Source: Candidatus Moranbacteria bacterium GW2011_GWC2_40_12 (GTDB lineage: Bacteria; Patescibacteriota; Minisyncoccia; Moranbacterales; UBA11712). From it: a stretch of 64,000 nt of DNA. Positions 6,292 to 61,922 of this stretch are shown in pieces. The position numbers were made by a program, and so were the translations under genes. How positions within the stretch are numbered: the stretch's first letter is position 1; each line of letters starts with the position of its first letter. The stretch lies in assembly GCA_000995965.1 (NCBI GenBank), contig LBYD01000003.1, forward strand, positions 17,713-81,712, in the 5' to 3' direction. Under the pieces are notes generated by a model. The model was given only the letters and a program-made list of their open reading frames with translations, made no database searches and was not told the DNA's origin.

Positions 6292-6361
6292 GTAATTTGT
6301 AATTAGTAAATGGTAATTGGGATTTTAGTGTCCAAATTACGAATTACAAATTACCAATTAC
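6292..6361. repeat. heptad-periodic palindromic element, GTAATTN variant
   Basis: gtaattt gtaatta gtaaatg gtaattg, then a loop, then aaattac gaattac aaattac caattac. Sits between yjbQ and the malic enzyme. Confidence 0.7.
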
Positions 6362-7488
6362 TTAAAAACTTTTGCGACAACTCGAGCAACCCTCCTATCC
6401 AGCACGTCTGGCACTATTTTATCACTTTTTGGATTTTTCACCAAACTGGCAATTGCAAGGGCGATTCCAATCTTGATCTTTTCGGAAATAATATTGGTTC
6501 TCGCATCAAGCGCCCCTCGAAAAAGACCTGGAAAAACAAGGGCATTGTTGATCTGATTGGGAAAATCGCTTCTTCCGGTCGCCATGACCGCTGCCCCGCC
6601 TTTTTTACCTTCCTTATAAGAAATTTCTGGAACCGGATTGCTCATGGCAAAGACAATCGCTCCTTTATTCATTCGGCGGATATCGCCGGCTGTCAGAAGC
6701 CTCCCCGTTGACACGCCAATGAACACGTCCGCCCCTTCGAGGGCTTCGCCGACGCTTGTGAAAAATTTTTCGTTTCCGGTTACGCAAGCGATTTCTTTTT
6801 TTGGACCATTTGTCTTTCGCAAGCAATTGCAGCAAAGAGATCCCTTGCTGTCAAAGACAACTATTTTTCGCGCTCCGTATTTTGACAATAGTTTTGTGAC
6901 AGCCGTTCCTGCTGCCCCCGCTCCCGAAATCACAATCCGGACATTTCTGATGTTCTTTTTCACGACTTTGAGCGCATTGACGAGTCCGGCCAGGACCGCA
7001 ATGGCCGTCCCGTGCTGATCATCGTGAAAAACGGGAATGTCCAGCTCGTTCACTAATCTTTTTTCTATCTCAAAACATCTCGGAGCAGAAATATCTTCGA
7101 GGTTTATTCCGCCGAAACCCGGTGCGATATTTTTCACGGTTTCAATGATTTTTTCCGTATCCTGCGTCGCAAGAATAATCGGAACTGCGTCCACATTCGC
7201 CAATTCTTTGAACAAAACGGACTTTCCTTCCATTACCGGAAGAGCCGCCTCCGGTCCCAGATTCCCCAAACCCAAAATGGCGCTGCCGTCTGAAACAATC
7301 GCAACGCTATTTTTTTTCCAAGTGAGTTCAAAAACTTTTTTTTTATTTTTCGCTATTTCCCGAGAAAGTTCGGCAACGCCGGGAGTATAGAGAATCGGTA
7401 AATTGCGTTTTGTAAGTCTGCGGCGACTTTTTATTTCTATCTTGCTGCCTTGAAAATTTTGAATTTTGAATTTTGAATTTTGAATCAA
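6358..7488 (-). CDS. NAD(P)-dependent malic enzyme (short form)
   Basis: Carries the LPILYTPGVA motif, a Rossmann GAGAAG motif and malic-enzyme-like length and order. There is no ATG: the track starts at TTG 7488 and the first ~12 codons are read from the repeat, so the start is uncertain. Confidence 0.85.
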   Translation of the reverse strand: MIQNSKFKIQNFQGSKIEIKSRRRLTKRNLPILYTPGVAELSREIAKNKKKVFELTWKKNSVAIVSDGSAILGLGNLGPEAALPVMEGKSVLFKELANVDAVPIILATQDTEKIIETVKNIAPGFGGINLEDISAPRCFEIEKRLVNELDIPVFHDDQHGTAIAVLAGLVNALKVVKKNIRNVRIVISGAGAAGTAVTKLLSKYGARKIVVFDSKGSLCCNCLRKTNGPKKEIACVTGNEKFFTSVGEALEGADVFIGVSTGRLLTAGDIRRMNKGAIVFAMSNPVPEISYKEGKKGGAAVMATGRSDFPNQINNALVFPGLFRGALDARTNIISEKIKIGIALAIASLVKNPKSDKIVPDVLDRRVARVVAKVFK

Positions 7489-7538
7489 ATTATGATGATT
7501 GAATTTTAATTTCGAAATTATTTAATTCAAAATTAAAG
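7452..7538. repeat. heptad/octad-periodic palindromic element (TTGAATTT variant)
   Basis: ttgaattt occurs four times in tandem, followed by complementary aattcaaaatt units. Confidence 0.65.
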
Positions 7539-7563
7539 TCAATGAATAAAGAAGTAGTCCAAA

Positions 7564-8484
7564 TCAAGCCGATATTTGCAATTTCTTATAAACAGAACCA
7601 GCAGCAACCGCTCCTTCCGCCGCCGCGGTGATAATCTGCCGCAATTTATTCGATCCGTTAGTCACGTCTCCCGCCGCCCAAACGCCGGAAATATTCGTGG
7701 TTTGGCCGCTGTCCACCTTGACATATCCCTGCTCGTCCGTTTCGATTCCCAATTGATTTGTTATTTCCACCCCAGGCTCGCTGCCAATTTCAATGAAAAC
7801 TCCTTGAACTGCCAATTCTCCGCTGCCAGCGTGCTGTTTGTCCAAAACAATTTTTTCAACCGCCTTATCCCCTTTTATCTCTTTGATATTCGTACTGAAG
7901 ATGACTTCGATTTTTCTCTCGGCCGAAATTTTTTCCATATAGGCAGGATCTATCTTGAGTTTTTCCCCCCGATAGATCAAATACACTTGGCTGGCATATC
8001 GAGAAAGAAGCAGTGCGGCCGACCCCGCGCTGTTTCCTCCACCGACTACCGCCACAACTTTTTCTTTGAAAAAAGCGGCATCGCAGGTCGGGCAATAGGA
8101 AACCCCCTTGCCTTTGAATTCAGCTTCACCCGGAATTTGAAGTTTCCGGTATTCCATTCCTGACGCCAAAATTATATTTTTTGCCTGATACTCACCGGAA
8201 TGAGTCGTGATTTTGAATATATCCCCCTCTTTCGAGACGCTGGACACCGAATCCATCAGGATCTCCCCACCCAATTTTTCAGCGTGTTCGCGCATTTTTT
8301 GCAAAAGCTCAAAACCGGGCATAGAAACAGTTCCCGGCCAATTTTCGATCTGGTGGGCTTCGTTGGCTTGCCCGCCGGGTTCCCTTCCAATCACAAGATG
8401 CTTCACCTTATAGCGCGAAGAATAGATAGAAGCCGTGAGGCCCGCTGGCCCGGCACCGATGATAATTAGATCGAAGATATCCAT
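7564..8484 (-). CDS. trxB: thioredoxin-disulfide reductase
   Basis: 306 aa. Carries the FAD motif IIGAGPAGLTA, the redox motif CPTCD and an NADPH-binding GGGNSA motif. Confidence 0.9.
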   Translation of the reverse strand: MDIFDLIIIGAGPAGLTASIYSSRYKVKHLVIGREPGGQANEAHQIENWPGTVSMPGFELLQKMREHAEKLGGEILMDSVSSVSKEGDIFKITTHSGEYQAKNIILASGMEYRKLQIPGEAEFKGKGVSYCPTCDAAFFKEKVVAVVGGGNSAGSAALLLSRYASQVYLIYRGEKLKIDPAYMEKISAERKIEVIFSTNIKEIKGDKAVEKIVLDKQHAGSGELAVQGVFIEIGSEPGVEITNQLGIETDEQGYVKVDSGQTTNISGVWAAGDVTNGSNKLRQIITAAAEGAVAAGSVYKKLQISA

Positions 8485-8490
8485 GACTAT

Positions 8491-8591
8491 AATTTTGAAT
8501 TCGGAATTGTGAATTGTGAATAGGAATATTGAATACGGAATTCAGAATTCTATATTCTTGATTCCTATTCTAAATTCGCAGTTCTCAATTC
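8491..8591. repeat. heptad-periodic palindromic element (GAATTNN type)
   Basis: gaattcg gaattgt gaattgt gaatagg ..., then a loop, then ..cctattc taaattc gcagttc tcaattc. Sits between trxB and trxA. Confidence 0.75.
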
Positions 8592-8621
8592 TTTTTCGTA
8601 TTTTTAGTTATAAAATACTTT

Positions 8622-8936
8622 CTATACTTTCCCCAATTCCTCTTTCAATCCTTCCTTATTCTGCACGCCCACCAATTGCTTCATTTCCTTTCCGTCTTTG
8701 AAGATGATCATTGTTGGGATGGACATTATTCCGTATTTCGAGGCAGTTTCGCGATTTTCATCCACATTCAGTTTCCCTATTTTAAAATTGTCCTTCAGCT
8801 CCTGCGCCAGTTCGTCAATAATCGGTCCCATCATCTGGCAGGGACCGCACCATGCCGCCCAAAAATCGACGAGAACAGGCTTTTCGCTTTTGAGAACTTC
8901 TGCTTCAAAATTTTGGTCTGTGAACTCATGCGCCAT
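8622..8936 (-). CDS. trxA: thioredoxin
   Basis: 104 aa with the WAAWCGPCQ active site. Confidence 0.95.
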   Translation of the reverse strand: MAHEFTDQNFEAEVLKSEKPVLVDFWAAWCGPCQMMGPIIDELAQELKDNFKIGKLNVDENRETASKYGIMSIPTMIIFKDGKEMKQLVGVQNKEGLKEELGKV

Positions 8937-8993
8937 AAATTTGACTCCAATATCCGATGTTAGGAGTGTCCCAATACCGGAAGTTGGAACATT

Positions 8994-9509
8994 TTAAGCT
9001 TTTTTACGATTTACATAAAGAAGCGCTGCTCCGCCGACAAGGATAAGCGCAATCAATACTACGGGAAAGATATTTTTTTTATTTCCGGTCGGATTCTGTT
9101 CCGGCTGGTTTTGTTGATTCATATTTTTTCCCGCTGCCTTTCCGTTTTTTTCCGGATCCGGTAGTTCCCTGGCTTCCACATTGGAGATCTCCTTTTCAAA
9201 ATTATCAATAATTGGCTGATCACCGACTAAAAACTTGTCGCCAAAAGCAATGGCCGGCACGCTCCCTTTATATTCACTGTCAAACGCTTCTCCGAACTTC
9301 ATCAGCAGCCGGGCGTTGAAAGGATTTGAAAATTCAAGCTTAGTGATTTCGTATTTGTCATAAATCCCGTTCTCGCTGAAATATTCGTCCACTTTTACGC
9401 AATGCGGGCAGGTATCACCGTAGAAATAGTAGGCCTTTTTCTTGCCGGCATCTTGAGCAGAGACCAAAAACGGAATTAGCAGAAATAAAGCAATAATTGA
9501 TTTTTTCAT
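8994..9509 (-). CDS. secreted thioredoxin-fold (glutaredoxin/DsbA-like) protein with C-terminal membrane anchor
   Basis: Signal peptide MKKSIIALFLLIPFLVSA and a CPHC motif. The C-terminus ends ..NPTGNKKNIFPVVLIALILVGGAALLYVNRKKA (hydrophobic stretch plus basic tail). ATG at 9509; the track starts at an upstream GTG at 9545. Confidence 0.7.
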   Translation of the reverse strand: MKKSIIALFLLIPFLVSAQDAGKKKAYYFYGDTCPHCVKVDEYFSENGIYDKYEITKLEFSNPFNARLLMKFGEAFDSEYKGSVPAIAFGDKFLVGDQPIIDNFEKEISNVEARELPDPEKNGKAAGKNMNQQNQPEQNPTGNKKNIFPVVLIALILVGGAALLYVNRKKA

Positions 9510-9545
9510 GGTTTTTTCTTTACAAGTAACAAATATGCTTCGCAC

Positions 9546-9613
9546 TGCGAATATACGAACGCAAGAACCTTTCCGAAATTCGTATATTCGTAAAAGATTC
9601 GTAATTCGTAAAG
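9546..9613. repeat. heptad-periodic palindromic element (ATTCGTA variant)
   Basis: gcgaatatacgaacg is the left arm. The right arm is ttcgtatattcgtaaaagattcgtaattcgtaaag. It abuts the uppS stop. Confidence 0.6.
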
Positions 9614-9614
9614 A

Positions 9615-10328
9615 TTATCCCCCAAACCGTCTCGCTCTCCTCGAATAATCCTCAATCGCCTCGTGCGCTTTTTTGTCGTCAAAATCCGGCCAAAGCACTT
9701 CCGAAAAATACAGCTGGGCGTTCCGAAGATCCCACATCATGAATCCGGCGCTAATATGCGGCTCGCCGCCGGTGCGAATCAGAAGATCCACCGGCGGAAG
9801 GTCTCGCGTCATAAGATTTTCTTTTATCATCTTTGAGGTGATACGCTTCACCTTGCCTTTGCATTTCTCGATGAGGCTGTTGGCCGCCTCGACCAATTCA
9901 TCATCGCCGGAATAAGCCAAAAGAAAATTCAAAAAAAACTTCTGGTATTTTTCGGTTCTTGTCATGCATTTTCTGATGATTTTTTTGACCGTTTCCGGAA
10001 ACTGGTCTTCCCATTTTCCGATCACATTCACCCGCACTTCATGACTGTGGATATCCTCATTGTCTATCAGTTTTAAAAAATATTTTCGATAAATATCCAG
10101 CAACGCTTTTTTTTCGCGAAGCGGCCTTTTCCGGAGATTATCGAGTGAAGATCCCCAAAAAGTGATATGTTTCACGCCCAAGTCAAGATTAGCCCGCAAC
10201 ACTTTTTCGAGGTTCTTTGCTCCCGCGTCGTGCCCTTCCCAGGGCTTGAGGCCTTTTTTCTTCGCCCATCGCCGGTTCCCGTCGGGAATAATGGCGACGT
10301 GATTGGGAATGTTTTCTAATTGAGACAT
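9615..10328 (-). CDS. uppS: undecaprenyl diphosphate synthase
   Basis: 237 aa. Carries the HVAIIPDGNRRWAKKKG motif and the conserved cis-prenyltransferase fold order. Confidence 0.95.
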   Translation of the reverse strand: MSQLENIPNHVAIIPDGNRRWAKKKGLKPWEGHDAGAKNLEKVLRANLDLGVKHITFWGSSLDNLRKRPLREKKALLDIYRKYFLKLIDNEDIHSHEVRVNVIGKWEDQFPETVKKIIRKCMTRTEKYQKFFLNFLLAYSGDDELVEAANSLIEKCKGKVKRITSKMIKENLMTRDLPPVDLLIRTGGEPHISAGFMMWDLRNAQLYFSEVLWPDFDDKKAHEAIEDYSRRARRFGG

Positions 10329-10487
10329 ATAAATAAACAGGGAATACTAATCCCGATCTTTATCTGTTATTTTTCTGTGCCGTTATTATATTAAAAGATT
10401 GAAAAATACACAAATGTATTTCATTTTTAATTTCATCGCGAAGCGACTACAAAATTATACACTTTGCGTTTTCGCTTTATATATTTT

Positions 10488-11555
10488 CTAAACTTCTCTC
10501 TTCACTATATAATCCGCGATCCCGATCAGAAACGCTTTGACCTCCCTGTTGAAATCCGACTTTTCAATGGCCGCTTTTCCTTCTTCGACATATTTCCTCG
10601 CCAAATTTTGGGAATATTCAAAAGAGCCGGTTTCACGTATCACTCGCCTGAAACTTTCTATATCGCTTTCAGAAACATTTTTATTCCCCAGAAGTTTTTT
10701 CACCAATTTTTTCTGCTTCACGTCACTATTTTCAAGGGCCTTTACGATTAGGAGAGTTTGTTTCCCTTCCCGAAGATCGGAGCAAACCGGTTTTCCCAAT
10801 TTTTTTTCGTTCCCGAACGCCCCCAAAATGTCATCCTGAATTTGAAAAGCGATTCCGACCGGAACGGCATATTCGCTCAAAACTTTGAGTATCTTTTCGT
10901 CTGCGCCGGCGAGAAGCGCCCCGAGATGAAGCGGGCCTTCGACTGTATATTTGGCCGTTTTATTTCGATGCACTTCGATAATTTCTTTTTCAGTCGCCCG
11001 GCCTTTCGCTTCGAGCATCACATCCAGAATCTCGCCGGAAACGGTATTTACGACAATTTCCTGAAGTTTCAAAAGGGCTTTTTGCTTTCTCTCCGGAGAG
11101 AAACGGGAATTGAATATTATTTCATTTCCGAATGCCGCCGCCATATCACCCGCCACAATCGCCATTGAATCGCCAAAGTGTTTCGGTTCGGCTTTTTTAT
11201 AAAATTTCTTTGCCAAACCTTCATACCTCTTGTGGATCGTCTGGACACCGTGGCGAAAATCATCCCGGTCAATGATGTCGTCGTGAATGAGAAGAAAAAT
11301 ATGCGTGAGTTCTATACTCATCGAAGCCTCGATGATTTTTTCAAAATCATTGCCACCGGCCGCCCGATATCCCCAATACATGAAACCGGCCCGCACCCGT
11401 TTTCCGCCGGCGAGAATCAGATCGCGGATGCATTTCACGGCGTCCTTCGCCGACGGCCCGACCTCCCGCATCTCACGGAGCTTTTTGGCAAAATATTGGG
11501 CCAGACTACGATCAAGCGTTTTTTTGTAATTTTGCAGTTCTATTTTCGCGTCCAT
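10488..11555 (-). CDS. polyprenyl diphosphate synthase (trans-isoprenyl diphosphate synthase family)
   Basis: First DDxxD at LLIHDDIIDRDD and second at FQIQDDILG. Confidence 0.9.
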   Translation of the reverse strand: MDAKIELQNYKKTLDRSLAQYFAKKLREMREVGPSAKDAVKCIRDLILAGGKRVRAGFMYWGYRAAGGNDFEKIIEASMSIELTHIFLLIHDDIIDRDDFRHGVQTIHKRYEGLAKKFYKKAEPKHFGDSMAIVAGDMAAAFGNEIIFNSRFSPERKQKALLKLQEIVVNTVSGEILDVMLEAKGRATEKEIIEVHRNKTAKYTVEGPLHLGALLAGADEKILKVLSEYAVPVGIAFQIQDDILGAFGNEKKLGKPVCSDLREGKQTLLIVKALENSDVKQKKLVKKLLGNKNVSESDIESFRRVIRETGSFEYSQNLARKYVEEGKAAIEKSDFNREVKAFLIGIADYIVKREV

Positions 11556-11599
11556 ATAACTCTATTTTGGCTTATATAAGGAAAAATAGCAAATTTTGA

Positions 11600-11628
11600 T
11601 TGACAAAGTTGGATAATTTATATATAAT
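11600..11628 (+). promoter_or_regulatory. sigma70-type promoter (TTGACA-17-TATAAT)
   Basis: ttgaca at 11600-11605, a 17-nt spacer, then tataat at 11623-11628. Confidence 0.55.
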
Positions 11629-11659
11629 AACAGCAATAAAAAAACGAGTGGAGGTTAAC

Positions 11660-11869
11660 ATGCAACAGGCGACGTCGCAGCACACAGTGGATCTAGGAGG
11701 GGATATCAAACGGATTTTGATGGTCAGCCATAGCATTGGAGGAAAACGGCATATCGCCGAAGTCCGCGCTACTGGCAGTATGGATTTCGTGAGGCCTGCG
11801 CTCCACGAAATGTTCGTGGCCCCGGTCATCGAATCTGAGAAGTTCCTGAAGAGGAAACGCTTCTCCTAA
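11660..11869 (+). CDS. small GC-rich ORF (69 aa) with GGAGG SD; alternatively a structured ncRNA
   Basis: GGAGG sits 6 nt before the ATG. The SD-containing stretch gagtggaggtt is complementary to aaccacctccac immediately after the stop. GC is about 55% versus about 40% for the genome. Promoter upstream and terminator downstream. Confidence 0.35.
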   Translation: MQQATSQHTVDLGGDIKRILMVSHSIGGKRHIAEVRATGSMDFVRPALHEMFVAPVIESEKFLKRKRFS

Positions 11870-11931
11870 CCACCTCCACCGTGCAACACCGCCTCGCGGC
11901 ACTAGGACGCCATCGCGCGTATCATTACCTA

Positions 11932-11951
11932 GTGCCCGGGGCACCTTTTTT
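11932..11951 (+). terminator. rho-independent terminator
   Basis: gtgcccggggcac hairpin followed by ctttttt. Confidence 0.6.
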
Positions 11952-12010
11952 ATAAGGACAATTCACGAAAATTATAATTCGCCTAACTCGGGTGTTTTTT
12001 TATTGAAAAA

Positions 12011-12412
12011 TCAGGCGTGATATTTTTTTCTCACAATTCTCAATATTGGCCGGTTTCGCTCTTTTATTCTTGCCTGTGCGATCTTATCCTGTAATTCTCT
12101 TTGAATATCCCTGTTGCTCGAAATATGGCTCCATCGGTGAGCTTCCAGAAGGACGCTGTCTGTCCGATCCAGCACTGACTGCCGTTCTTCTTTTGATAAC
12201 TCATCGAAATGTTCAAGGATGGCGTCAAGGCTTTTGACAATGCCAAGAAATGAACTCGCCCTCAACGCTTCATCTCTTTTTTCCTTTCCCTGAAATAAGT
12301 CTTCACCAACCGGAACGCTTGCGAAGAAATCCTTCAAGACATTCGGATTGAGTCTTTCCGTCGGCGCGTTTATTTTTGGAATATGTTCTTCATTTTTCGC
12401 TGTCTCAAGCAT
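12011..12412 (-). CDS. hypothetical protein
   Basis: 133-aa ORF with an ATG start and a charged helical composition. No motif recognised. Confidence 0.45.
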   Translation of the reverse strand: MLETAKNEEHIPKINAPTERLNPNVLKDFFASVPVGEDLFQGKEKRDEALRASSFLGIVKSLDAILEHFDELSKEERQSVLDRTDSVLLEAHRWSHISSNRDIQRELQDKIAQARIKERNRPILRIVRKKYHA

Positions 12413-12432
12413 AATATTTCAAAATCCTTTGT

Positions 12433-12504
12433 AGCCTCTAGGGGAATCGAACCCCTCTTACTAGGATGAGAACCTAGCGTCCTAGCCGATAGACGAAGAG
12501 GCCA
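12433..12504 (-). tRNA. tRNA-Glu (anticodon CUC)
   Basis: Cloverleaf: acceptor GGCCUCU/AGAGGCU, D-arm GUCU..GGAC, anticodon loop UUCUCAU, T-arm AGGGGUUCGAUUCCCCU, discriminator A. No encoded CCA. Confidence 0.8.
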
Positions 12505-12655
12505 CGATAACTTATACATTACTAAAAATTTTTCAAATTGTCCATAATTTTCAAAAAAGAAAAGGGCCCGTGCTGGATGCGCCTGCGATGCAGACGCCAC
12601 GGACCCCCTCGGGTCGAATTTTGGTTTCGCAATTATTAGCTCCCTCCTTCGCCTC

Positions 12656-12874
12656 TTAGGCTTTGCCAACAGGATTGTAGGCGTAGTTGCACCCAAGTCT
12701 AGAGGTGCAAGGCATGGGCCCATTTCCATAGAAGATACAGGATGGGCATTGCTCTGAAAAATGTCGCTCGGGTTCTTTTATGGTGATGAATCCCATTTTT
12801 GAAAAGCGGCTTTCCCTTACAATTTCCTGGAAAGCCTCAGCCGCTGCCATTAAACTTCCTTCAGATGAATTCAT
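12656..12874 (-). CDS. small Cys-rich ORF (72 aa) with GGAGG SD, embedded in a structured GC-rich RNA region
   Basis: ggagg sits 4-5 nt before the ATG. The C-terminus reads CPSCIFYGNGPMPCTSRLGCNY. The 3' end lies inside a GGGCCC...GGGCCC-closed helix domain followed by a U-tract. Confidence 0.3.
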   Translation of the reverse strand: MNSSEGSLMAAAEAFQEIVRESRFSKMGFITIKEPERHFSEQCPSCIFYGNGPMPCTSRLGCNYAYNPVGKA

Positions 12875-12907
12875 TGTTCCTCCGAAAATCTCGGAAAATA
12901 TTTAGTG

Positions 12908-12978
12908 AAAAAATGGTTAGTCTTGCGCCCAACTTAAGAATCAAATTTACGTTTAATTATTAAATCGGGCACAAGACT
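12908..12978 (-). terminator. long hairpin plus U-tract (minus strand), likely murF operon terminator
   Basis: agtcttgcgccc pairs with gggcacaagact. On the minus strand this is followed by uuuuuu (plus-strand aaaaaa at 12908-12913). Confidence 0.45.
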
Positions 12979-13218
12979 TTTTGTGTTTTCTTCCAAAAAA
13001 CACAAAACGACCCAGCGTATCGCGTGGATCGTTTGTTAAAGAGCTGACGGTTGTCCCCTATTTCATCCCGCCGCAACTTTGGCGAAGGCGGATTTATTTC
13101 TACAGCCGTGAGCTCTCTTAGATATTCAATTTTGCCGAATTTTATTTTCCCCTTTTTATTTCAACGCCTCTTTATTCTACTCCACTGAAAATATCGGTCA
13201 AGCCGGAGTTATCCACAA

Positions 13219-14529: not shown

Positions 14530-14532
14530 AAA

Positions 14533-14645
14533 CAGAATTTTGAATTGAGAATTGCGAATTTAGAATGGGAATGTTTGAATTTAGAATCCTGAATTCTTTA
14601 TTATTTATTCCCATTCGCAATTCTAAATTCTGAATTCTCAATTCT
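14533..14645. repeat. heptad-periodic palindromic element (GAATTNN type)
   Basis: gaatttt gaattga gaattgc gaattta gaatggg ..., then a ttattatttattc loop, then ccattcg caattct aaattct gaattct caattct. Overlaps the ftsI stop. Confidence 0.8.
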
Positions 14646-16521
14646 TATTTTTTTTCTTCTTCTCCTTCTTTTCTTCCACCGTCGATGTTGGCTGCGCCGG
14701 AGCCGTTTCTTCCGGTTTTGGCGCCTGATATATCGAAATGTCGTGCGTGGCGTTGAAAAGGTCTATGTCTTTTTCAGTATATTCTTCGGTTGGTTCGACA
14801 CCAAAATAATCTAGCATGAATTTCGCCATTTCACCAAACGTCGGTGCGGCGCTTGATTCGGCCCACTCGACATTCTTGGGATTATCGAGCTTCACAAGCA
14901 TCACGAACTTCGGGTCATATGCTGGCGCGAACCCGGCGAACGATCCGACATGCGCATTTTCATCGTATCCACCGCCTTCTTTCTTGGGAATTTGGGCTGT
15001 TCCGGTTTTTCCGGCCACGAGATAGCCGGGAACTCCCGCCCTTTTTCCGTGACCGTTTTGGACAACGCTAACCAGCATTCGAGCCAAATCCAGACTGGCT
15101 TCCCTTGACATAACTCGCCGTTCTTCCCGGGGCTGGGTTTTGATCTCTTCCTCATTGCCTTTCACGATTTTTTCCACCAAGTATGGCTTCAAGAGTTCGC
15201 CTCCGTTGGCAATCACAGTAAAAGCATTCACGAGTTGAAGCGGCGTCATCGAAATCCCCTGTCCGAATGATGCCGTAAAAGAATTTATGCTTCGAAGTTC
15301 CGCCACACCCGAAATATTGCCCGGAACTTCCCCTATTGTTTCAATTCCAGTTTTTTCTCCGAATCCGAAATTTTTGACATATTCATAAAAGCGCAGGTTT
15401 CCGAGAAGTTTTTCAACAAAAATGACTCCGGTATTCAAAGATTTTTCAAGAACCTGAGTCATGGTTTGGACGCCATTAGCTTTTCCGTCAGAATTTTTGA
15501 TGGTGTAGCCGGCTTCGCTGACCGCGCCTGTGTCCGTATAGGTCGTGTCCGGCATCACTACTTTCGCGTCAATCCCGGCAGCCATCGTGATTGGCTTGAA
15601 AACGGACCCGCATTCGTACGTTCCGCTCACTGCCGGATTGGAAAAAACTGACATATCTTCCACTTTGGAAAAATCATTGGCGTTGAAAGTCGGCCAGGAC
15701 GCCATGGCTAAAACCGCTCCCGTGCGTGGTTCCTGCACAACTATTGTCCCGCCGTCCGCGCTGAATTTTTCAACCGATTTTTTGATCGCCATTTCGGCGC
15801 GGTATTGAATCGTATGATCAATGGTCAGATAGATATCAGCGCCATTTTCGGCCGGCACAACGGTTCTGTCGCCAATCGAAATCCAGCGCCCTCCCGTATC
15901 CCGTTCCTGCTCAAGGCTCCCCTCACGTCCAGTCAGTTCTTTTTCCCAATAGGCTTCAAGACCATAGCGTCCTTTTGTTTGGTTGCCGTCAGACCCGACA
16001 AAACCCACGATCTGGGAGGCAAAAGTTCCGCCGGGATAAAATCGCTCGTTTTCAGGGGAAAAATATATACCCTTGAGTCCCTTTTCCCTAATTTCTTCGG
16101 CTTTTCGTTCGTCCACTTTATGCTTGAGAACCGCATACCAGACACCGGGCTGATCCAGCTTGTCCTCTATTTCCCACTCATCAAGTTCCAGAATCGGCGC
16201 TATTTGCCGAGCGGTCTCTTCCGGATTTTCCACTTCCCGCGGCACGGCAAAGACGAGATTTAGTTCCTTGTTCACCGCCACGGGATAGTATCCGTCAGTA
16301 TCTTTCACTAATATCTCCCCTCTCCTGGGGACAAGATCGTCAAAAACTTTGTGCTGGTCGGAAGCCAGCTCTTGATAATAACTATGGGCGAGAACCTGAA
16401 GAGTATATAGGCGGAACACAACTATGCCGGCGGTCGCAAAAATAAAAACAACCAGAACATATATCCGGAAGTTTGTTTTTAGAGAACCGGTTTTTTGTGC
16501 GGCAAAATTTTTTTTGGTCAT
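14638..16521 (-). CDS. ftsI: peptidoglycan D,D-transpeptidase FtsI (class B PBP)
   Basis: N-terminal TM helix and a dimerisation domain. Carries the SVFKP (SxxK) and KTGTAQ motifs. ATG at 16521; the track starts at TTG 16524. Confidence 0.9.
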   Translation of the reverse strand: MTKKNFAAQKTGSLKTNFRIYVLVVFIFATAGIVVFRLYTLQVLAHSYYQELASDQHKVFDDLVPRRGEILVKDTDGYYPVAVNKELNLVFAVPREVENPEETARQIAPILELDEWEIEDKLDQPGVWYAVLKHKVDERKAEEIREKGLKGIYFSPENERFYPGGTFASQIVGFVGSDGNQTKGRYGLEAYWEKELTGREGSLEQERDTGGRWISIGDRTVVPAENGADIYLTIDHTIQYRAEMAIKKSVEKFSADGGTIVVQEPRTGAVLAMASWPTFNANDFSKVEDMSVFSNPAVSGTYECGSVFKPITMAAGIDAKVVMPDTTYTDTGAVSEAGYTIKNSDGKANGVQTMTQVLEKSLNTGVIFVEKLLGNLRFYEYVKNFGFGEKTGIETIGEVPGNISGVAELRSINSFTASFGQGISMTPLQLVNAFTVIANGGELLKPYLVEKIVKGNEEEIKTQPREERRVMSREASLDLARMLVSVVQNGHGKRAGVPGYLVAGKTGTAQIPKKEGGGYDENAHVGSFAGFAPAYDPKFVMLVKLDNPKNVEWAESSAAPTFGEMAKFMLDYFGVEPTEEYTEKDIDLFNATHDISIYQAPKPEETAPAQPTSTVEEKKEKKKKNKN

Positions 16522-16533
16522 CAATTTTTGTAT

Positions 16534-16893: not shown

Positions 16894-16928
16894 TGGACTT
16901 TCGTCCCCCTGATTTTCTTTTTTATTTT

Positions 16929-17037
16929 TGAATTATGAATTGTGAATTGCGAATTAGAATGGGAATGCGGAATCCCGAACTCTGAATTCTTTGTTCTAAA
17001 TTCCCATTCGCAATTCTTAATTCCAAATTCTCAATTC
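16929..17037. repeat. heptad-periodic palindromic element (GAATTNN type)
   Basis: gaattat gaattgt gaattgc gaattag aatggga ..., then a loop, then cccattc gcaattc ttaattc caaattc tcaattc. Confidence 0.8.
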
Positions 17038-17039
17038 TT

Positions 17040-18092: not shown

Positions 18093-18102
18093 ATCTAATG
18101 CA

Positions 18103-18190
18103 AAATGCAAAAATCAAAATGAAAAATGACAGTGTAAAATTCAAAATATTTTTTCATTTTGAATTGTCATTTTGACTTTTGATTTTTAAT
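18103..18190. repeat. heptad-periodic palindromic element (ATGNAAA/CAAAATG variant)
   Basis: atgcaaa atgcaaa aatcaaa atgaaaa atgacag ..., then complementary ttttcat tttgaat tgtcatt ttgactt ttgattt units. Confidence 0.7.
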
Positions 18191-21422: not shown

Positions 21423-21471
21423 TTTGAATTTTGAATTGTGATTTTGATTTTTGACTTTTGAGTTTTGAATT
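21423..21471. repeat. short heptad-repeat element (TTGAATT/TTGATTT variant) upstream of dnaX
   Basis: tttgaat tttgaat tgtgatt ttgattt ttgactt ttgagtt ttgaatt. Confidence 0.5.
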
Positions 21472-32249: not shown

Positions 32250-32285
32250 TATTCGTATATTCGTATTTGATTCGTAATTCGTAAA
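32250..32285. repeat. tandem ATTCGTA heptads
   Basis: attcgta tattcgt atttgat tcgtaat tcgtaaa. Confidence 0.5.
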
Positions 32286-45433: not shown

Positions 45434-45520
45434 TTTTGAATTGAGAATTGGGAATTCAGAATTGAGAATGAGAATATTGCCTGCCTACCGGCAGGCAGGA
45501 ATCTGGAATATTAATATTCC
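45434..45520. repeat. heptad-periodic element (GAATTNN) with embedded GC hairpin
   Basis: gaattga gaattgg gaattca gaattga gaatgag aatattg, then cctgcctaccggcaggcagg, then ggaatattaatattcc. Confidence 0.65.
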
Positions 45521-46495: not shown

Positions 46496-46606
46496 AAGAA
46501 TTGTGAAATTGGATTTTTGAATTGTGAATAGGAATAATAAATAGAGAGTTATAATTCAACATTCTTGATTCCCATTCCTAATTCTCAATTCACAATTCTA
46601 AATTCT
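46496..46606. repeat. heptad-periodic palindromic element (GAATTNN type)
   Basis: gaattgtgaaattggatttttgaattgtgaataggaat ..., then a loop, then attcttgattcccattcctaattctcaattcacaattctaaattc. Confidence 0.8.
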
Positions 46607-46613
46607 ATATTTT

Positions 46614-51839: not shown

Positions 51840-52056
51840 TTCCTTTCCCCTCCCACTGAAATTTTGAGCGCTTTGCCGCCTTGCCCCGCACCAAAAATGC
51901 GCTTTTCGCATTTTTTCGATGATTCTCGAATTTTGGTGCGGGGTGAAAAAACGCTTTGTTTCTTTGACTAATGCTTAGAACAGAAAAAAGATATTGTCAA
52001 GCCTCGCGGTTGTGCTGTATAATATGATCATCGGAATAACTTCTAAAACAGAAATG

Positions 52057-53747: not shown

Positions 53748-55544
53748 ATGCTCGAAAAATACCAGCATCATATCGTGGCGGCAATTCTTATTATAGTACT
53801 CGCCATCTCCATCGGCACGGCACTCGGCGATGCGGCCATAATGGATGAGGTAGCCCATATTCCGTCGGGTTATTCCTATGTGAAATATCATGACTTCCGC
53901 CTCAATCCGGAACACCCGCCGCTTCTCAAAGATTTGGCCGGAATCCCCCTGCAATTTTTGGATGTCAGCTTTCCGACCAACGAGCAATTTTGGACCACCG
54001 ACGCCAATGGCCAATGGAACGCCGGCTGGCGTTTTCTGTATCTCCCCGGAAATGACACGGAAAAAATCATTTTTTGGTCGCGTTTCCCGATTATTCTCCT
54101 TTCACTTCTTCTCGGATTTTTTATTTTCAAATGGGCCAAGGAACTCTTCGGCCTGAAAGCAGGGCTTCTGGCGCTGGCTTTCTACGCCTTTGATCCCAAT
54201 ATTCTCGGCCACAATCACTATGTCACAACCGATCTTGGCATTGCCGCTTTTCTCTTTTTTGCCTTTTATTTTTTCCTGAAGTATCTCAAAAATCCGAATT
54301 GGCAGACAATCGCACTGGCTGGAATTTTCATGGCATTGGCGCAGCTGGCCAAATTTTCGGCAGTTCTTATGTTCCCTGTTTTTGGCATTGTTCTCCTCGC
54401 CAACATATTCTTTCGAAAGAAAAAAATCAAGTTTTCCCTCCTGGGATCGGGAAAAATAAAAAAATTCTGGCTTCAGAAATTTTATCTATACTCGTCCAGC
54501 TTTGTCATTATTTTTCTCATCCATATTCTTCTTATCGGAGTTGTCTATCAGCTGAATATCTATCGCATGCCAACCGAAAAAATTCACGAGCTTGTTGACA
54601 CGCAGCTGTATGGCGGATCGAAGAACCTTACCGGCGACACTCTTCACAAAATGGCGGATAACCCCGTTCTCCGCCCCTATAGCCAGTATCTTACAGGCCT
54701 TTTTATGGTTTTTGGGCGGGTGGCCGGCGGAAACACGACATATTTCTTCGGCCAGGTAACAAACCAGAGTTTTCGGGAATATTTTCCCATGGTGTTTCTC
54801 ATCAAAGAGCCTATACCCATTCTCCTGTTTCTCCTTAGCGCTCTGGCCATTGCTCTTTATTTCATCCTCCGAAATAATTTGGCTGATTTCCCGAGGCATA
54901 TTTGGAAAAACGTGAAAAATTATCTGGACGGCCATATTGCCGAAACTGCCATGCTTCTCTTCGTTGCCCTTTATGCCTATGTGAGCATCACGGGCAATCT
55001 CAACATCGGTTTTCGTCATCTTTTTCCGATTCTTCCGTTCATGTATATTCTCGTTTCCAAAGAAATTGTTTTTCTCTGGGCAAAATTGAGAGGCAATGCC
55101 AGAAAAATCTATTCTGTTGCTGTCGCCGTTCTTTTGCTCTGGCTCGCCGCCGAGACGGCTCTGGCCTATCCCTATTATCTCGCCTACTTCAATGAAACCG
55201 TTGGCGGATCAAAAAACGGCTACAAGTATGTAACCGATTCTAATGTTGACTGGGGGCAGGAGCTCAAACGCCTTCAAACCTTCATCGAGAAGAATAATAT
55301 TGAAAAAATCCGAGTTGACTATTTCGGCGGCGGCGATGTGAAACATTACCTTGGTGAAAGAGCGGTTATTTGGCACGCGGATCTGGGGCAAGAACCCGGC
55401 TGGTATGCAATATCCGCGACTTTCATCCAAAATTCTCTTTACTATAAAATCACCGAAGGAAAACCCGACTACCAGTGGCTGCGGGAAAAAGAACCTTATG
55501 CCGCAATCGGGCACTCAATACTGATATATAGAATTGTGAATTAA
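53748..55544 (+). CDS. GT-C fold glycosyltransferase (family 39/83), tandem paralogue
   Basis: IMDEVAHIPSGYSY first-loop DE motif. Polytopic. 598 aa. Confidence 0.7.
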   Translation: MLEKYQHHIVAAILIIVLAISIGTALGDAAIMDEVAHIPSGYSYVKYHDFRLNPEHPPLLKDLAGIPLQFLDVSFPTNEQFWTTDANGQWNAGWRFLYLPGNDTEKIIFWSRFPIILLSLLLGFFIFKWAKELFGLKAGLLALAFYAFDPNILGHNHYVTTDLGIAAFLFFAFYFFLKYLKNPNWQTIALAGIFMALAQLAKFSAVLMFPVFGIVLLANIFFRKKKIKFSLLGSGKIKKFWLQKFYLYSSSFVIIFLIHILLIGVVYQLNIYRMPTEKIHELVDTQLYGGSKNLTGDTLHKMADNPVLRPYSQYLTGLFMVFGRVAGGNTTYFFGQVTNQSFREYFPMVFLIKEPIPILLFLLSALAIALYFILRNNLADFPRHIWKNVKNYLDGHIAETAMLLFVALYAYVSITGNLNIGFRHLFPILPFMYILVSKEIVFLWAKLRGNARKIYSVAVAVLLLWLAAETALAYPYYLAYFNETVGGSKNGYKYVTDSNVDWGQELKRLQTFIEKNNIEKIRVDYFGGGDVKHYLGERAVIWHADLGQEPGWYAISATFIQNSLYYKITEGKPDYQWLREKEPYAAIGHSILIYRIVN

Positions 55545-55640
55545 GAATTTTGAATTGAGAATAGGAATATCGAATATTGAATCCTGAATTCTTTATTTTT
55601 TCTTCCCATTCAAAATTCAAAATTCGCAATTCCAAACTCC
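55531..55640. repeat. heptad-periodic palindromic element (GAATTNN type)
   Basis: gaattgt gaattaa gaatttt gaattga gaatagg aatatcg ..., then a loop, then cccattc aaaattc aaaattc gcaattc. Its first units encode the last 4 codons of the upstream gene. Confidence 0.8.
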
Positions 55641-55646
55641 AAAAAC

Positions 55647-56534: not shown

Positions 56535-57278
56535 TTATAAAAAGCTTTTCACCACCTTTGCCGCCATCCAGGCGTATATGTTCGTCCGGCCGTATTTCTT
56601 GATTCGGACGGATTCTTGCTTTTCTTGAAAAATGAAATCGAAAGTCTGGCCTTGGGCGTCGGTCCTCAAGTTTTCCGCCCGTGCTTCAGCCTCTTCGGAA
56701 AAACCGAATGTCGTCACTTTCGCTTTAGTGAAATTTTTGAGTTCCTTCACTCGGCCATCGTCGCAGTTCAAAAAGAGATAACCGTCTTTCGGCAATTGCT
56801 GAACCAGCAATTTCAATTCACCAAAAACATTGTCGAGGCTCGAATTCGCGTAAGTATAGCTTCCCTCGATGTTTGTAACAATAACTGCATTGGGACGCAC
56901 CATTTCAAGAAGGGGCTTCATGTCGCCTTTTTCCTCAACGCCAAGTTCGAGGACCAGTTTCTTGGGAAATTTCCGGCCAAAAAGGGCCCGCATTTTAGCC
57001 TGGACAAGAATTTTGAGCCACCGAAGCGCCGAAGATTCTCCGGAATCGAGATAGAGAATGGCGAGTGGCAGGCCGATTTCGGTGTTATATGATTTCGGGT
57101 TTCCCCGCACTTCTTTTTCGCCGTATTTTTCCCGCAGAAATTTCAAGATATAATCTTTGGTCGTGGTCTTGTTCGTGCTTCCCGCCACGGCAATGATGAA
57201 AGGCCTGTGCCGCCAGAGGGTTATCTTTGTCAAAAGCTTGAGATGAAATTGGACAATTTTCTTAAATATTGATTTCAT
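56535..57278 (-). CDS. truncated paralogue of the MurF-like Mur ligase (N-terminal ~55% only); possible pseudogene
   Basis: P-loop AVAGSTNKTTTKD. Carries NTEIGLPLAILYLDSGE (cf. NNEIGLPLTVLGLESGE in the 13219 gene). Ends inside the central domain. The track N-terminus (TTG 57374) is read through the repeat. Confidence 0.6.
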   Translation of the reverse strand: MKSIFKKIVQFHLKLLTKITLWRHRPFIIAVAGSTNKTTTKDYILKFLREKYGEKEVRGNPKSYNTEIGLPLAILYLDSGESSALRWLKILVQAKMRALFGRKFPKKLVLELGVEEKGDMKPLLEMVRPNAVIVTNIEGSYTYANSSLDNVFGELKLLVQQLPKDGYLFLNCDDGRVKELKNFTKAKVTTFGFSEEAEARAENLRTDAQGQTFDFIFQEKQESVRIKKYGRTNIYAWMAAKVVKSFL

Positions 57279-57282
57279 CAAT

Positions 57283-57359
57283 ATGTAATTAGTAATTGGT
57301 AATTTGTAATTGGGATATTTGTTCTGATCCGAATTGCGAATTACTAATTGCAAATTACG
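57283..57359. repeat. heptad-periodic palindromic element (GTAATTN variant)
   Basis: atgtaatt agtaatt ggtaatt tgtaatt ggg ..., then a loop, then gaattgc gaattac taattgc aaattac. Confidence 0.7.
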
Positions 57360-60116: not shown

Positions 60117-60120
60117 GAAT

Positions 60121-60351
60121 TTATTTTTGTGAATTATTCTTCTCAAACATGACTTCGCCGATAGCTTTTAGCTCATTCTCGATATTTATCAGTTCTGCTG
60201 ACACTAAAGCACGCCTGGTTTGCAATTCTTCTTCCAGATTCGCTAATTGTTCTGCATCCAGATTATTTATTTTTTCGTTGATAAATCTCGATTTTTTGAG
60301 ATTATCCAGGGCATTCTCTTCTGTTTCGCGCGCTTTTTCCAGATTGTTCAT
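60121..60351 (-). CDS. small coiled-coil hypothetical protein
   Basis: 76 aa with heptad E/L/N pattern and an ATG start. Sits directly upstream of serS. Confidence 0.45.
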   Translation of the reverse strand: MNNLEKARETEENALDNLKKSRFINEKINNLDAEQLANLEEELQTRRALVSAELINIENELKAIGEVMFEKNNSQK

Positions 60352-60364
60352 ATTTTTATGATTA

Positions 60365-61813
60365 TTATTTCTCTTTCATCGGAGGAAAAAGAACCGTTTC
60401 CCGCACCGATTTATTCATTAAAAAAGCAAACAGCCTTTCTGAAAAGCCGAAACCGAAGGCCGGCGGCATGCCATATTCGAGTGCTTCGACATAATCTTCG
60501 TCAAGCATTTGAGCTTCTTTGTCCCCCGCTTCGCGAAGCTTCATCTGCTCCTCGAATCGGGATCTTTGGTCAATCGGGTCATTCAGCTCCGAAAAGCCGT
60601 TACCGAGCTCTGAAGCGCAGGCGATGACCTGTAACCGCAAAACTTTTCGCGAATCTTTCGGATCTTTTTTGGCAAGAGGAGAGACTTCAACCGGATGGCC
60701 GACGAGAAAACAAGGTTCTATCAGCTTCGGCCGGACAATTTTCTTGAAAAGAAGATCCGTCATCCTGCCTTTACCAAAATTTGGATCGTATTTGATTTTC
60801 AGTTCATCCGCTTTTTTTTGCAGCTCCTTGATGTCAACATCTTTCGCAAGGTCAATTCCCGTTTCATTTTTAAACAACTTGAAATAATCCAGCTTCGGCC
60901 ATTTCGCGCCCCAATTTATTTTATTTCCTTCAAATTCAGTTTCCAGGCCTCCCGCGACACTCTTGATCAATGCCTTGAAGAGTTTTTCCACAAATCTCAT
61001 TCCGCCGCGAAGGTCCTGAAAGGCTTCGTATGTTTCCAGCATGTCATATTCCTGAAGATGCTCGCGATCAATCCCCTCGTTGCGAAAAACCCGCCCGATT
61101 TCAAATACTTTTTCATAGCCGCCGACCAAAAGTCTTTTCAGCCCCAGCTCAAGCGATATTCTCAAATAATAATCACGGTTGAGCGCATTGTGATGCGTCG
61201 CAAAGGGTTCTGCTTCTGCCCCGCCCGGTATGTTTTCAAATACGGGCGTCTGCACTTCAAGAAAACCGCTTTTCGAAAGAAATTTCCGGGCCGTTTGCCA
61301 AAAAATATTTTTTTTGCGAAATATTTCGCGCGTTTCCGGATTCATCATGAGATCAAGATAACGGCGGCGCAAAAGCTCTTCCGTATCCTTGAGACCAAAA
61401 TATTCGGTCGGCACGGGAGCAAGGCTTTTCGAAAGCATTTTCCAATCAGAAATCTGGAGAGTCATTTCGCCTGTTTTAGTTTTGAAAAGTTTTCCCCGCA
61501 CTTCAACAAAGTCTCCTAAATCAACATTATCGATGAAAAGTTTGTGTTTCCCGCCGCTCATATATTGCTCATTCAAAAATATCTGGATTTTCGCCGATTC
61601 GTCTTCAATATGGGCAAAAGCCGAACCGCCCATGGGACGAAGCGACCGGACTCTCCCGGTGAGGTTCAATTCCTTTTCCTGAAGAGCTTCGAATTTATCA
61701 AGGGCTTCCCGATTTTCCATCGAGCGCTTCGTTTTTTCCGGATACGTCTCCATTCCCGCTGAGCGCAGGTTCTCAAGTTTTTTGAGTTTTATTTCTTTGA
61801 TTTCATTCAACAT
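60365..61813 (-). CDS. lysS: lysine--tRNA ligase (class II)
   Basis: N-terminal OB anticodon-binding domain. Class II motifs, including a motif-3-like GFSERLFAFL. Confidence 0.95.
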   Translation of the reverse strand: MLNEIKEIKLKKLENLRSAGMETYPEKTKRSMENREALDKFEALQEKELNLTGRVRSLRPMGGSAFAHIEDESAKIQIFLNEQYMSGGKHKLFIDNVDLGDFVEVRGKLFKTKTGEMTLQISDWKMLSKSLAPVPTEYFGLKDTEELLRRRYLDLMMNPETREIFRKKNIFWQTARKFLSKSGFLEVQTPVFENIPGGAEAEPFATHHNALNRDYYLRISLELGLKRLLVGGYEKVFEIGRVFRNEGIDREHLQEYDMLETYEAFQDLRGGMRFVEKLFKALIKSVAGGLETEFEGNKINWGAKWPKLDYFKLFKNETGIDLAKDVDIKELQKKADELKIKYDPNFGKGRMTDLLFKKIVRPKLIEPCFLVGHPVEVSPLAKKDPKDSRKVLRLQVIACASELGNGFSELNDPIDQRSRFEEQMKLREAGDKEAQMLDEDYVEALEYGMPPAFGFGFSERLFAFLMNKSVRETVLFPPMKEK

Positions 61814-61816
61814 ACA

Positions 61817-61922
61817 AATTGAATTGAGAATTTAGAATTGGGAATTGCGAATGGGAACAAAGAATCATGAATTCTGAATTCTATATTCCGGATTCCCGTT
61901 CCAAATTCAAAATTCGCAATTC
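61817..61922. repeat. heptad-periodic palindromic element (GAATTNN type)
   Basis: gaattga gaattta gaattgg gaattgc gaatggg ..., then a loop, then cccgttc caaattc aaaattc gcaattc. Confidence 0.8.

Follow-up and report, generated by a model that had tools for sequence, protein, structure and literature searches.

Intervening sequences (IVSs) in bacterial ribosomal RNA genes have been known since 1990 (PMC4990558). Those that carry a gene of the S23p family (PF05635), as in the 23S rRNA genes of Coxiella burnetii, Leptospira, Brucella and Xanthomonas, hold this gene in the loop of an inverted-repeat stem; in Coxiella, 3-4 GACAGAT heptamers (three copies and one degenerate unit) stand directly before the S23p ATG, their number depending on the strain, and the first repeat is where RNase III cuts the stem (PMC4990558). 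The rRNA genes of the Candidate Phyla Radiation (CPR) contain 23S_rRNA_IVP open reading frames (ORFs) as well as many short, ORF-less, IVS-like inserts (PMC11270868). Among the long simple repeats of prokaryotes, in turn, heptanucleotide repeats are the most frequent; they have been described in Beggiatoaceae, Cyanobacteria and Bacteroidetes (PMC4679880). Here we analyse a 64-kb stretch ("the window" throughout) of contig LBYD01000003.1 from the groundwater CPR member Candidatus Moranbacteria bacterium GW2011_GWC2_40_12 (44% G+C, 90% coding, genes mostly on the minus strand), in which intergenic spacers hold palindromic elements made of tandem 7-nt units (heptads), and one of these elements encloses an S23p gene. 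We conclude that the elements are probably a selfish palindromic family of the IVS type, whose gene-less derivatives, similar to miniature inverted-repeat transposable elements (MITEs), fill stop-to-start spacers, those of the dcw operon included. A preliminary description of this DNA had named no described equivalent, but the Coxiella IVS heptamers and the prokaryotic heptanucleotide repeats were already in the literature (PMC4990558, PMC4679880).

The likeness to the S23p-bearing IVSs, among which we also count a locus of Azospirillum lipoferum (AZO_p2), extends over several features. Firstly, the PF05635 gene lies in the loop, as it does in one window element. Secondly, both have an inverted-repeat stem with heptamers that run up to the ATG and vary in number between strains (Coxiella, PMC4990558; Azospirillum). 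Thirdly, both are AT-rich relative to the host, have short ORF-less versions and are sporadically distributed. Unlike the IVSs, the window elements are numerous within 64 kb and mostly lack a gene. Their position is also different: instead of 23S helix 25 or 45, or the 16S gene in CPR, they are found between protein-coding or tRNA genes, including those of the dcw cluster, and Rfam finds three tRNAs only and no rRNA in the window. Excision by RNase III is a feature of the rRNA IVSs and may be proposed for the window elements by analogy.

Cyanobacterial short tandemly repeated repetitive (STRR) sequences were reportedly described by Mazel et al. in 1990. The STRR/TAACTGA repeats share with the window arrays a strict 7-nt unit, an intergenic position and, often, a distance of a few nucleotides from a start codon (PMC4679880). 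They occur in the same phyla as the GAATTNN arrays described below, and such heptamers flank the S23p genes of Nostoc and Calothrix. The window arrays, too, are head-to-tail 7-nt units in intergenic DNA, as is typical of heptanucleotide simple repeats. However, the STRR/TAACTGA repeats are described as direct arrays (one inverted case in 170 sets, PMC4679880), whereas the window has inverted pairs, i.e. hairpins of ~100 nt in dispersed homologous families. No link between the STRR/TAACTGA repeats and S23p was found in the searchable papers.

Short, dispersed, hairpin-forming, intergenic and co-transcribed sequences like the window elements are also known as MITEs, as repetitive extragenic palindromes and bacterial interspersed mosaic elements (REP/BIME) with their REP-associated tyrosine transposase (RAYT), and as the Correia/CREE, RUP and Rickettsia RPE repeats. 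The likeness to MITEs is that gene-less copies outnumber a longer, gene-bearing relative and that these dispersed copies share a consensus and both ends with it (alignments A2 and A5). Unlike MITEs with their unique terminal inverted repeats, the window elements have arms of tandem heptads, and the partner gene, PF05635, encodes a four-helix bundle and not a DDE or Y1 transposase. REP/BIME was rejected as an assignment, as the elements are heptad-built and 70-130 nt long, unlike the imperfect 20-40-nt palindromes with a conserved 5' tetranucleotide, and there is no Y1_Tnp match among the ~50 window proteins scanned with Pfam. In diversity-generating retroelements, Avd is the pentameric, nucleic-acid-binding partner of the reverse transcriptase. 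Avd belongs to a homologous four-helix-bundle family, and PF05635 is discussed in a review of these retroelements (PMC10053308); unlike in these systems, the window has no reverse transcriptase, template repeat or variable repeat.

Results and Discussion

Heptad periodicity and element families

Tandem Repeats Finder reports period-7 arrays at all 17 sites that the preliminary description had listed. A self-match scan of the window gives 22 period-7 segments (892 nt), all but one of them intergenic, versus 0-1 segments for each of the periods 5, 6, 8, 9, 10 and 11. The autocorrelation of non-coding DNA peaks at lags 7, 13-14, 20-21 and 27, and coding DNA has a lag-3 signal only. The word GAATTNNGAATT occurs 41 times versus 1.24 expected, a count that was reached by none of 100 shuffles. 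The strict 7-nt period is borne out, whereas the statement that the elements sit between nearly every gene pair was too strong: they occupy about 17 of the 45 spacers of at least 20 nt.

The elements are 70-130 nt long and fall into homologous families (Table 1). Six full-length GAATTNN copies (type A; 8491, 14533, 16929, 46496, 55530 and 61820), each roughly 105-115 nt long, align over ~110 nt (A2) with a mean identity of ~73-78% (A2 and the earlier alignment A1). They consist of GAATTNN x4, GAATGGG AATATTG AAT..., a short centre around GAATTC, and the mirror image ...ATTCCCATTC, NNAATTC x4, and both arms carry GAATGGG. Within type B (GTAATTN) and type D (ATTCGTA) the two copies of each type can be aligned (A7), while the three AAAATNA copies (type C2; 97, 18103 and 42757) align mutually and with spacers of related genomes (A6). 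Thirteen of the ~16 elements are inverted pairs, and only those at 21423 and 32250 are solo arrays. Iterons, i.e. direct repeats of ~17-22 bp at an origin beside a rep gene, were rejected as an identification: the window arrays have a 7-nt unit and are inverted and scattered along the 64 kb, and none of the window proteins scanned comes from a rep gene.

The gene-bearing element

The sites 45434-45520 and 45905-45950, at first listed as two elements, are the left and right arms of a single gene-enclosing element of ~510 nt (45438-45945). Read along the minus strand, it consists of GAATTAT GAATTTA GAATTGA GAATTGT GA-ATG-GG, an ORF of 126 aa, a small G+C-rich stem-loop, CAATATTCTCATTC and the inverted heptads. 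The ORF product matches the full length of the Pfam profile PF05635 ("23S rRNA intervening sequence protein", E 2.2e-32), and the annotation of the source genome calls it 'S23 ribosomal protein'. The closest solved structure is PDB 2GSC from Xanthomonas (E 6e-18), which was crystallised with five chains and has been described as a homopentameric toroid (PMC4990558).

The S23p gene is tied to the gene-less copies by its ends. Its start codon lies in the heptad GAATGGG, and this is the conserved inner heptad of every gene-less type A copy. The joined ends of the gene-bearing copy are colinear with the six gene-less type A elements, with 78% mean column identity and a single central gap of 11 columns (A5). 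In a flank-to-flank inverted match the S23p gene scores 23/28, the top value among 65 window genes, and the outermost heptad of the element holds the stop codon of the upstream 169-aa ORF. A PF05635 ORF is found inside this element only, and the other ~15 sites are ORF-less. Judged by alignment, gene-bearing and gene-less type A copies would be related as a parent is to its MITE. The earlier idea of a MITE- or REP-like family is supported in so far as there are homologous families and a gene-bearing relative of the GAATTNN family with the same ends.

S23p genes and inverted heptads in other genomes

A co-occurring protein family, for which a search had been suggested, does exist: it is PF05635. 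A metagenome scan with a single S23p protein gave 80 loci (52-79% identity), 71 of them with both flanks, and clustering at 95% identity left 60 non-redundant clusters. A period-7 array is present within 150 nt upstream of S23p in 55 of the 71 loci (non-redundant 47/60, 78%) and within 200 nt downstream in 36 (29/60); periods 6 and 8 are seen in 0-1 of 71. When the upstream flank is set against the reverse-complemented downstream flank, 53 of the 71 loci give a match of at least 20/28 (45/60 or 75% when non-redundant), as opposed to 1/71 for the direct match and 4/65 (6%) for ordinary window genes. The arrays reach into the S23p ATG and resume at the stop codon. The upstream array has a median of 5 units (range 4 to >12), and the heptads vary by lineage (GAATTNN, GAATANN, GTATCTN, GAATCAN), tracking the similarity of S23p across contigs. 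Two contigs of 99.5% identity differ by one 7-nt gap that corresponds to one heptad unit of their downstream arrays.

The arrangement is not confined to CPR metagenomes. Inverted heptads flank S23p in Bacteroidota and Planctomycetota genomes, in Nostoc punctiforme (GTCAGGA), in Calothrix (GGGTGTA / TACACCC) and in Riemerella (AAGGTTN / AACCTTN). The S23p ORF of Azospirillum lipoferum AZO_p2, with GGACAGA/GGACGGA heptads and their inverse, lies inside the large subunit rRNA (RF02541, 402 bits) and is a canonical IVS. We found no description of a general S23p/inverted-heptad cassette or of dispersed gene-less derivatives in the searchable literature, the coverage of which is incomplete, and an earlier description may exist.

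These data bear on another explanation, namely that the arrays are ordinary heptanucleotide repeats which arose by neutral slippage in AT-rich spacers and have neither element identity nor function. In most prokaryotic genomes no other long simple repeats are as abundant as heptanucleotides, for which slippage is the explanation given (PMC4679880), and the single 7-nt gap mentioned above as well as the many solo arrays in other phyla are in line with this. Slippage, however, does not yield matched inverted arms, a conserved length of ~110 nt or shared non-repeat centres in six dispersed copies, and it leaves the inverted arms across S23p (75% of loci versus 6% of controls) unexplained. Alignments A2 and A5 largely refute it, and we give this explanation very little credence.

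Structure of the stems

Folding was carried out on the transcribed strand and compared with dinucleotide shuffles (n=200 for type A). The six GAATTNN elements reach -28 to -36 kcal/mol (z -4.0 to -6.7), and none of 200 shuffles was as good. Negative z values were also obtained for the two GTAATTN elements and for sites 18103, 9546 and 42757, and the folds of 97-171 and 7452 are weak (Table 1). The long imperfect hairpin that was ascribed to each site is therefore present at most of them, with the exception of 21423-21471 and 32250-32285, which are solo arrays in one orientation. What does not hold in full is that the arms consist of complementary heptads: the 5-nt GAATT/AATTC cores pair almost always, but the 2-nt spacers in only 8/47 cells, i.e. 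the stem is a ladder of 5-bp helices between 2x2 internal loops. Rfam has no family matching the hairpins. Intrinsic (Rho-independent) terminators were rejected as well, given that no element is among the terminator-like sites in the 5.8-18.8 kb region and that a G+C-rich stem followed by a T-run is absent.

Alternatively, the arrays could be double- or single-stranded binding sites of a protein that reads a GAAT(T) core every 7 nt, the inverted symmetry being secondary; candidates would be a pentameric S23p toroid, a nucleoid protein or an RNA binder with an oligonucleotide-binding (OB) fold. The cores are near-invariant, the spacers are free, and pairing of the latter falls below the chance expectation of ~37%. 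The median upstream array has as many units as the S23p homologue 2GSC, a homopentamer (PMC4990558), has chains, and Csp and S1 have been proposed as binders of TAACTGA heptamers (PMC4679880). On the other hand, the heptad is wholly different between lineages (GAATTNN, GTATCTN, GGGTGTA, GGACAGA, CTAAAAG) and the array length ranges from 4 to >12 units. As a self-standing account we consider it rather improbable; it is compatible with an IVS-type element family and not exclusive of it.

Placement between genes

The dcw context of three elements was confirmed by Pfam, which gives the order Mur ligase, FtsI, DivIC/FtsL, RsmH, MraZ. Confirmed was also the overlap with stop codons, which concerns ftsI, the malic enzyme gene and the aminotransferase gene (Table 1). 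Downstream genes start within a few nucleotides of the last heptad, as exemplified by the likely Mur-ligase ATG at ~57277. By spacer type, elements are present in 13/22 minus-minus, 0/8 plus-plus, 1/7 divergent and 2/8 convergent spacers. The orientation of gene-less copies relative to transcription is mixed, with both orientations present, and is hard to call because the elements are near-palindromic. For the same reason an effect of the strand was unexpected. Comparing the plus-strand spacers of the region 19000-32000 (0/8) with the minus-strand spacers of the rest (13/22) gives p ~0.004 by our own Fisher's exact estimate, and replication direction, operon type or spacer length may underlie this bias.

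A position after stop codons would also suit transcription signals, either unusual AT-rich intrinsic terminators and attenuators, or outward promoters formed by TTGAAT...TAnAAT hexamers in the arms. About 10 promoter-like hexamer pairs do lie inside elements (37 found versus 20.5 expected, 5.8-18.8 kb). Yet none of the elements has the G+C-rich stem and T-run of a terminator, and they are found inside the normally co-transcribed dcw operon, in both orientations. We regard a primary role as transcription signals as highly improbable.

Distribution and turnover

Arrays of GAATTNN x4 were found at no fewer than 120 loci in species-representative genomes of at least nine phyla; among the matches listed are Bacteroidota, Cyanobacteria, Ignavibacteria, Acidobacteriota, Chloroflexota, Planctomycetota, Verrucomicrobiota, Clostridia and Saccharibacteria. 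The arrays are thus not genome-specific, contrary to an earlier suggestion. Some of those elsewhere are hairpins, e.g. in Saccharibacteria (L010, L093, L102). A jackhmmer search started from the window S23p found no match among the ORFs around 120 GAATTNN arrays of other genomes and one with a Bacteroidota seed found five, therefore most arrays outside CPR have no S23p nearby. A word-based protein search with the window S23p returned only close relatives, and no gene-bearing copies of families B, C and D were found.

RsmH and the S23p protein of the window have 100% identical counterparts in Candidatus Moranbacteria bacterium GW2011_GWC1_45_18. Four contigs from other samples (groundwater metagenomes, one of them SRR1658473) are 99.9-100% identical to positions 1-18484 of the window and were uninformative as to population variation. 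In relatives with 65-74% RsmH identity, the syntenic spacers carry long hairpins that are often heptad-built but have other units (CAATTTT, AATTTCG, ATGGAAC), and some are empty. One relative (L005) has GAATTTN heptads in the trxB/malic enzyme spacer, where the window has its type C1 element. Judging by these comparisons, the heptad system appears to turn over quickly.

In a different reading, the hairpins could be primary, host-maintained intercistronic stems, built and resized by heptad slippage and serving mRNA processing, stability or translation coupling, with S23p as a mobile guest that homes into their loops; the gene-bearing copy would then have arisen from a gene-less one. There are far more arrays than S23p genes, a hairpin is present in nearly all orthologous spacers of four related genomes but has different heptads, the elements lie exactly between stop and start codons, and the GAATGGG in both arms of gene-less copies could have supplied the start codon. 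However, the type of heptad in the arms tracks the similarity of S23p across contigs, the heptad phase carries on into both ends of the ORF, and the same cassette is found inside rRNA genes, which have no pre-existing intercistronic hairpin of the host. The non-complementary spacer dinucleotides and the lack of compensatory covariation also speak against a stem that the host maintains. We consider this order of events unlikely.

A model for the elements

We favour the reading in which the element comes first, as an IVS-type selfish unit. Its full-length form would consist of 4-5 or more tandem heptads, the S23p/PF05635 gene and the same heptads inverted, as exemplified by the window copy 45438-45945. 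The GAATTNN hairpins would be derived from such gene-bearing copies by internal deletions that kept both ends, including the GAATGGG start-codon heptad, and the GTAATTN, AAAATNA and ATTCGTA families would be sister families of the same kind. The elements are presumed to be mobile and would settle between the stop of one gene and the start of the next where both point the same way. As 7 cannot be divided by 3, three consecutive copies of a heptad with a stop triplet would close all three frames; therefore the element could abut or replace the last codons of a gene harmlessly. The number of units would change via slippage. In the operon mRNA the arms would fold into long stems, with 5-bp helices between 2x2 mismatches, that probably serve as RNase III substrates or as exonuclease barriers and in this way punctuate polycistronic transcripts, by analogy with the rRNA IVSs. 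There is no RNase III gene among the window proteins scanned, which says nothing of the rest of the genome.

S23p may itself act on the heptads. We tentatively put forward that it could be their cognate array-binding protein, possibly with one heptad per subunit of the pentamer, which mobilises, maintains or regulates heptad-stem elements. The rRNA IVSs, the STRR-type arrays and the gene-less CPR hairpins would then be one system, with the hairpins as MITE-like non-autonomous members. This wider proposal is speculative, and we consider it less likely than not.

Several observations weigh against the model. For S23p no catalytic or transposase activity is known (PMC4990558), and no transposase, RAYT or reverse transcriptase is present among the ~50 window proteins scanned by Pfam. 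The borders inspected (A1, A5) have T/A-rich flanks in which no consistent target-site duplication was recognised. The 64 kb contain one S23p copy only, of one family. The arms show no compensatory covariation, shuffles being equal or better, and G.U pairs show no consistent bias towards the transcribed strand; selection on an RNA stem is therefore supported by neither signal. The density of heptad arrays in S23p flanks, 4.8 per kb, is close to the ~3-4 per kb in CPR spacers generally, and because of this similarity it is the inverted pairing across the gene, and not the presence of arrays as such, that sets S23p loci apart. Even that pairing is not universal, as the arrays at the S23p gene of the Pseudanabaena galeata plasmid pPg_01 (L214, 45962-46915) are direct. 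Among the matches listed, GAATTNN x4 arrays in other phyla are mostly solo direct arrays beside genes, and PF05635, though the top Pfam family among small ORFs adjoining GAATTNN arrays in other genomes, accounts for 3/54 only. Gene-less arrays thus vastly outnumber S23p genes, and therefore the hairpins could be primary and S23p the guest.

Table 1. Heptad elements of the window, parts of the gene-bearing element, and dcw genes assigned by Pfam
Feature	Position	Strand	Context	Fold and remarks
Type C2 (AAAATNA) hairpin	97..171		Downstream of htrA-like gene	z -1.9; inside site 40-185 of the preliminary description
Type B (GTAATTN) hairpin	6292..6361		Malic enzyme stop TAA 6358-6360 in last heptad	z -4.5
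Type C1 (GAATTTT x4) element	7452..7538		trxB/malic enzyme spacer	Weak hairpin, z -1.5 (minus strand), -3.3 (plus strand)
Type A gene-less hairpin	8491..8597		trxA/trxB spacer	A2; minus-strand fold -31.7 kcal/mol, z -6.7
Type D (ATTCGTA, reverse complement of GAATTAC) hairpin with extra direct heptads	9546..9613		uppS/hypothetical spacer	z -3.0
Mur ligase gene	13219-14529
Type A hairpin	14533..14646		Fills ftsI/murF spacer; ftsI stop TGA 14638-14640 in outermost heptad	z -5.9
FtsI gene	14638-16524
DivIC/FtsL gene	16534-16893
Type A hairpin	16929..17039		rsmH/ftsL spacer, directly after rsmH stop 17040-17042; then conserved GGGGGA ribosome-binding region	z -5.6
RsmH gene	17040-18092
Type C2 hairpin	18103..18190		mraZ/rsmH spacer	z -5.3
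MraZ gene	18186-18677
Solo one-orientation array (TTTTGAA-type)	21423..21471		Without partner arm	No fold
Type D solo array	32250..32285		Between tRNA-Arg and uvrC	Homologous to 9578-9616
Type C2 hairpin, ~40 nt extra loop	42757..42885		Between convergent genes	z -2.8
Left arm (GAATTNN x4, then GAATGAG AATATTG)	45438..45479		Gene-bearing element	Aligns with left halves of gene-less copies (A1, A5)
Small G+C-rich stem-loop (CCTGCCTACCGGCAGGCAGG)	45480..45499	-	Downstream of S23p stop	Read from sequence, also in fold
S23p / four-helix-bundle gene, 126 aa, PF05635	45535..45915	-	Element loop	ATG 45913-45915 in heptad GAATGGG
Right arm (CCCATTC, then NNAATTC x4)	45911..45945		Gene-bearing element	Holds stop TGA 45937-45939 of upstream 169-aa ORF
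Type A hairpin	46496..46608			A2; z -4.0
Type A hairpin	55530..55641		Between convergent genes (PMT-type glycosyltransferase, FtsQ-like)	z -6.4
Type B hairpin	57283..57359		Aminotransferase stop TAA (57355-57357) to likely true Mur-ligase ATG (~57277)	z -4.2
Type A hairpin	61820..61926		Spacer between greA (62008-62463) and class II aminoacyl-tRNA synthetase (60365-61813)	z -5.3

Neighbouring genes and additional observations

The gene-bearing element adjoins a gene for a VirD4/TraG-like type IV coupling protein (845 aa; TrwB_AAD_bind, T4SS-DNA_transf) at 42890-45427, and several large ORFs at 46971-51911 have no Pfam match; the coupling-protein gene and the ORFs downstream could be a mobile or horizontally acquired region. 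The Mur-ligase-like ORF beside ftsQ (56535-57277) is short, ~247 aa from the likely ATG at 57277, and matches the Mur_ligase_M domain alone, with no C-terminal domain found. With its mechanical start, TTG 57374, the ORF would extend across the type B hairpin, and this start almost certainly lies too far upstream.

Two perfect palindromes lie in coding regions of excision-repair genes and are not heptad-built: one in uvrC (32787-32835) with 23-nt arms, 100% complementary, and a 3-nt loop (TTCCTTAAGTTTAACTTTAGGAA / TTCCTAAAGTTAAACTTAAGGAA), and one in uvrB (38536-38573) with 18-nt arms, 100% complementary, and a 2-nt loop. There is also a second, non-heptad palindromic repeat family, CCTAACAT(C/T)GA / TCGATGTTAGG, in several relatives' spacers (L006 16564-16620; L007 9962-10000 and 18671-18715) and in the hypothetical/trxA spacer of the window (8937-8993). 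The same two relatives have a conserved, G+C-richer structured spacer of ~95 nt (L006 16936-17048, L007 19031-19143; -49 to -51 kcal/mol; GCGAGAGATT...AAGTAGGCT...CTCCGAT...) in the trxA/trxB spacer, which in the window is occupied by a type A hairpin. Rfam gives no match for this conserved structure, which could represent an undescribed RNA motif ahead of thioredoxin reductase.

Two further S23p loci deserve mention. The Pseudanabaena gene lies between cas6 and cas4, with CTAAAAG x17 upstream and CCAAAAG x10 downstream, and '23S rRNA IVP' is one of the CRISPR-linked domains named in a legend of a paper on CRISPR discovery (PMC10910872). Heptad arrays might be taken for CRISPR-like repeats, or the link may be real. 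In three related metagenome contigs (L129, L133, L150) the S23p cassette is found at the same host site, where the upstream host gene ends in ...V-E-F-stop, with GAATT(T/C) in its last codons. The array begins inside these codons in L150 and lies 26 nt apart from them in L129, and we speculate that a pre-existing host GAATT may serve as target or seed of the array.

Conclusions

The locus shows an element type of the IVS kind outside rRNA genes, in gene-bearing and gene-less form and at high density. The position of S23p between inverted heptad arrays holds in CPR metagenomes, Bacteroidota, Planctomycetota, Nostocales and an alphaproteobacterial rRNA IVS, which makes the heptad array a testable candidate ligand for the very large S23p family and might explain some of the excess of heptanucleotides that has long been noted in bacteria. 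For the annotation of CPR genomes some caution is advisable, since start codons are easily over-extended into such elements, and the spacers of "compact" operons would be parasitised. Cleavage of the stems, if it takes place as in the rRNA IVSs, may lead to a systematic fragmentation of the operon mRNAs of these organisms.

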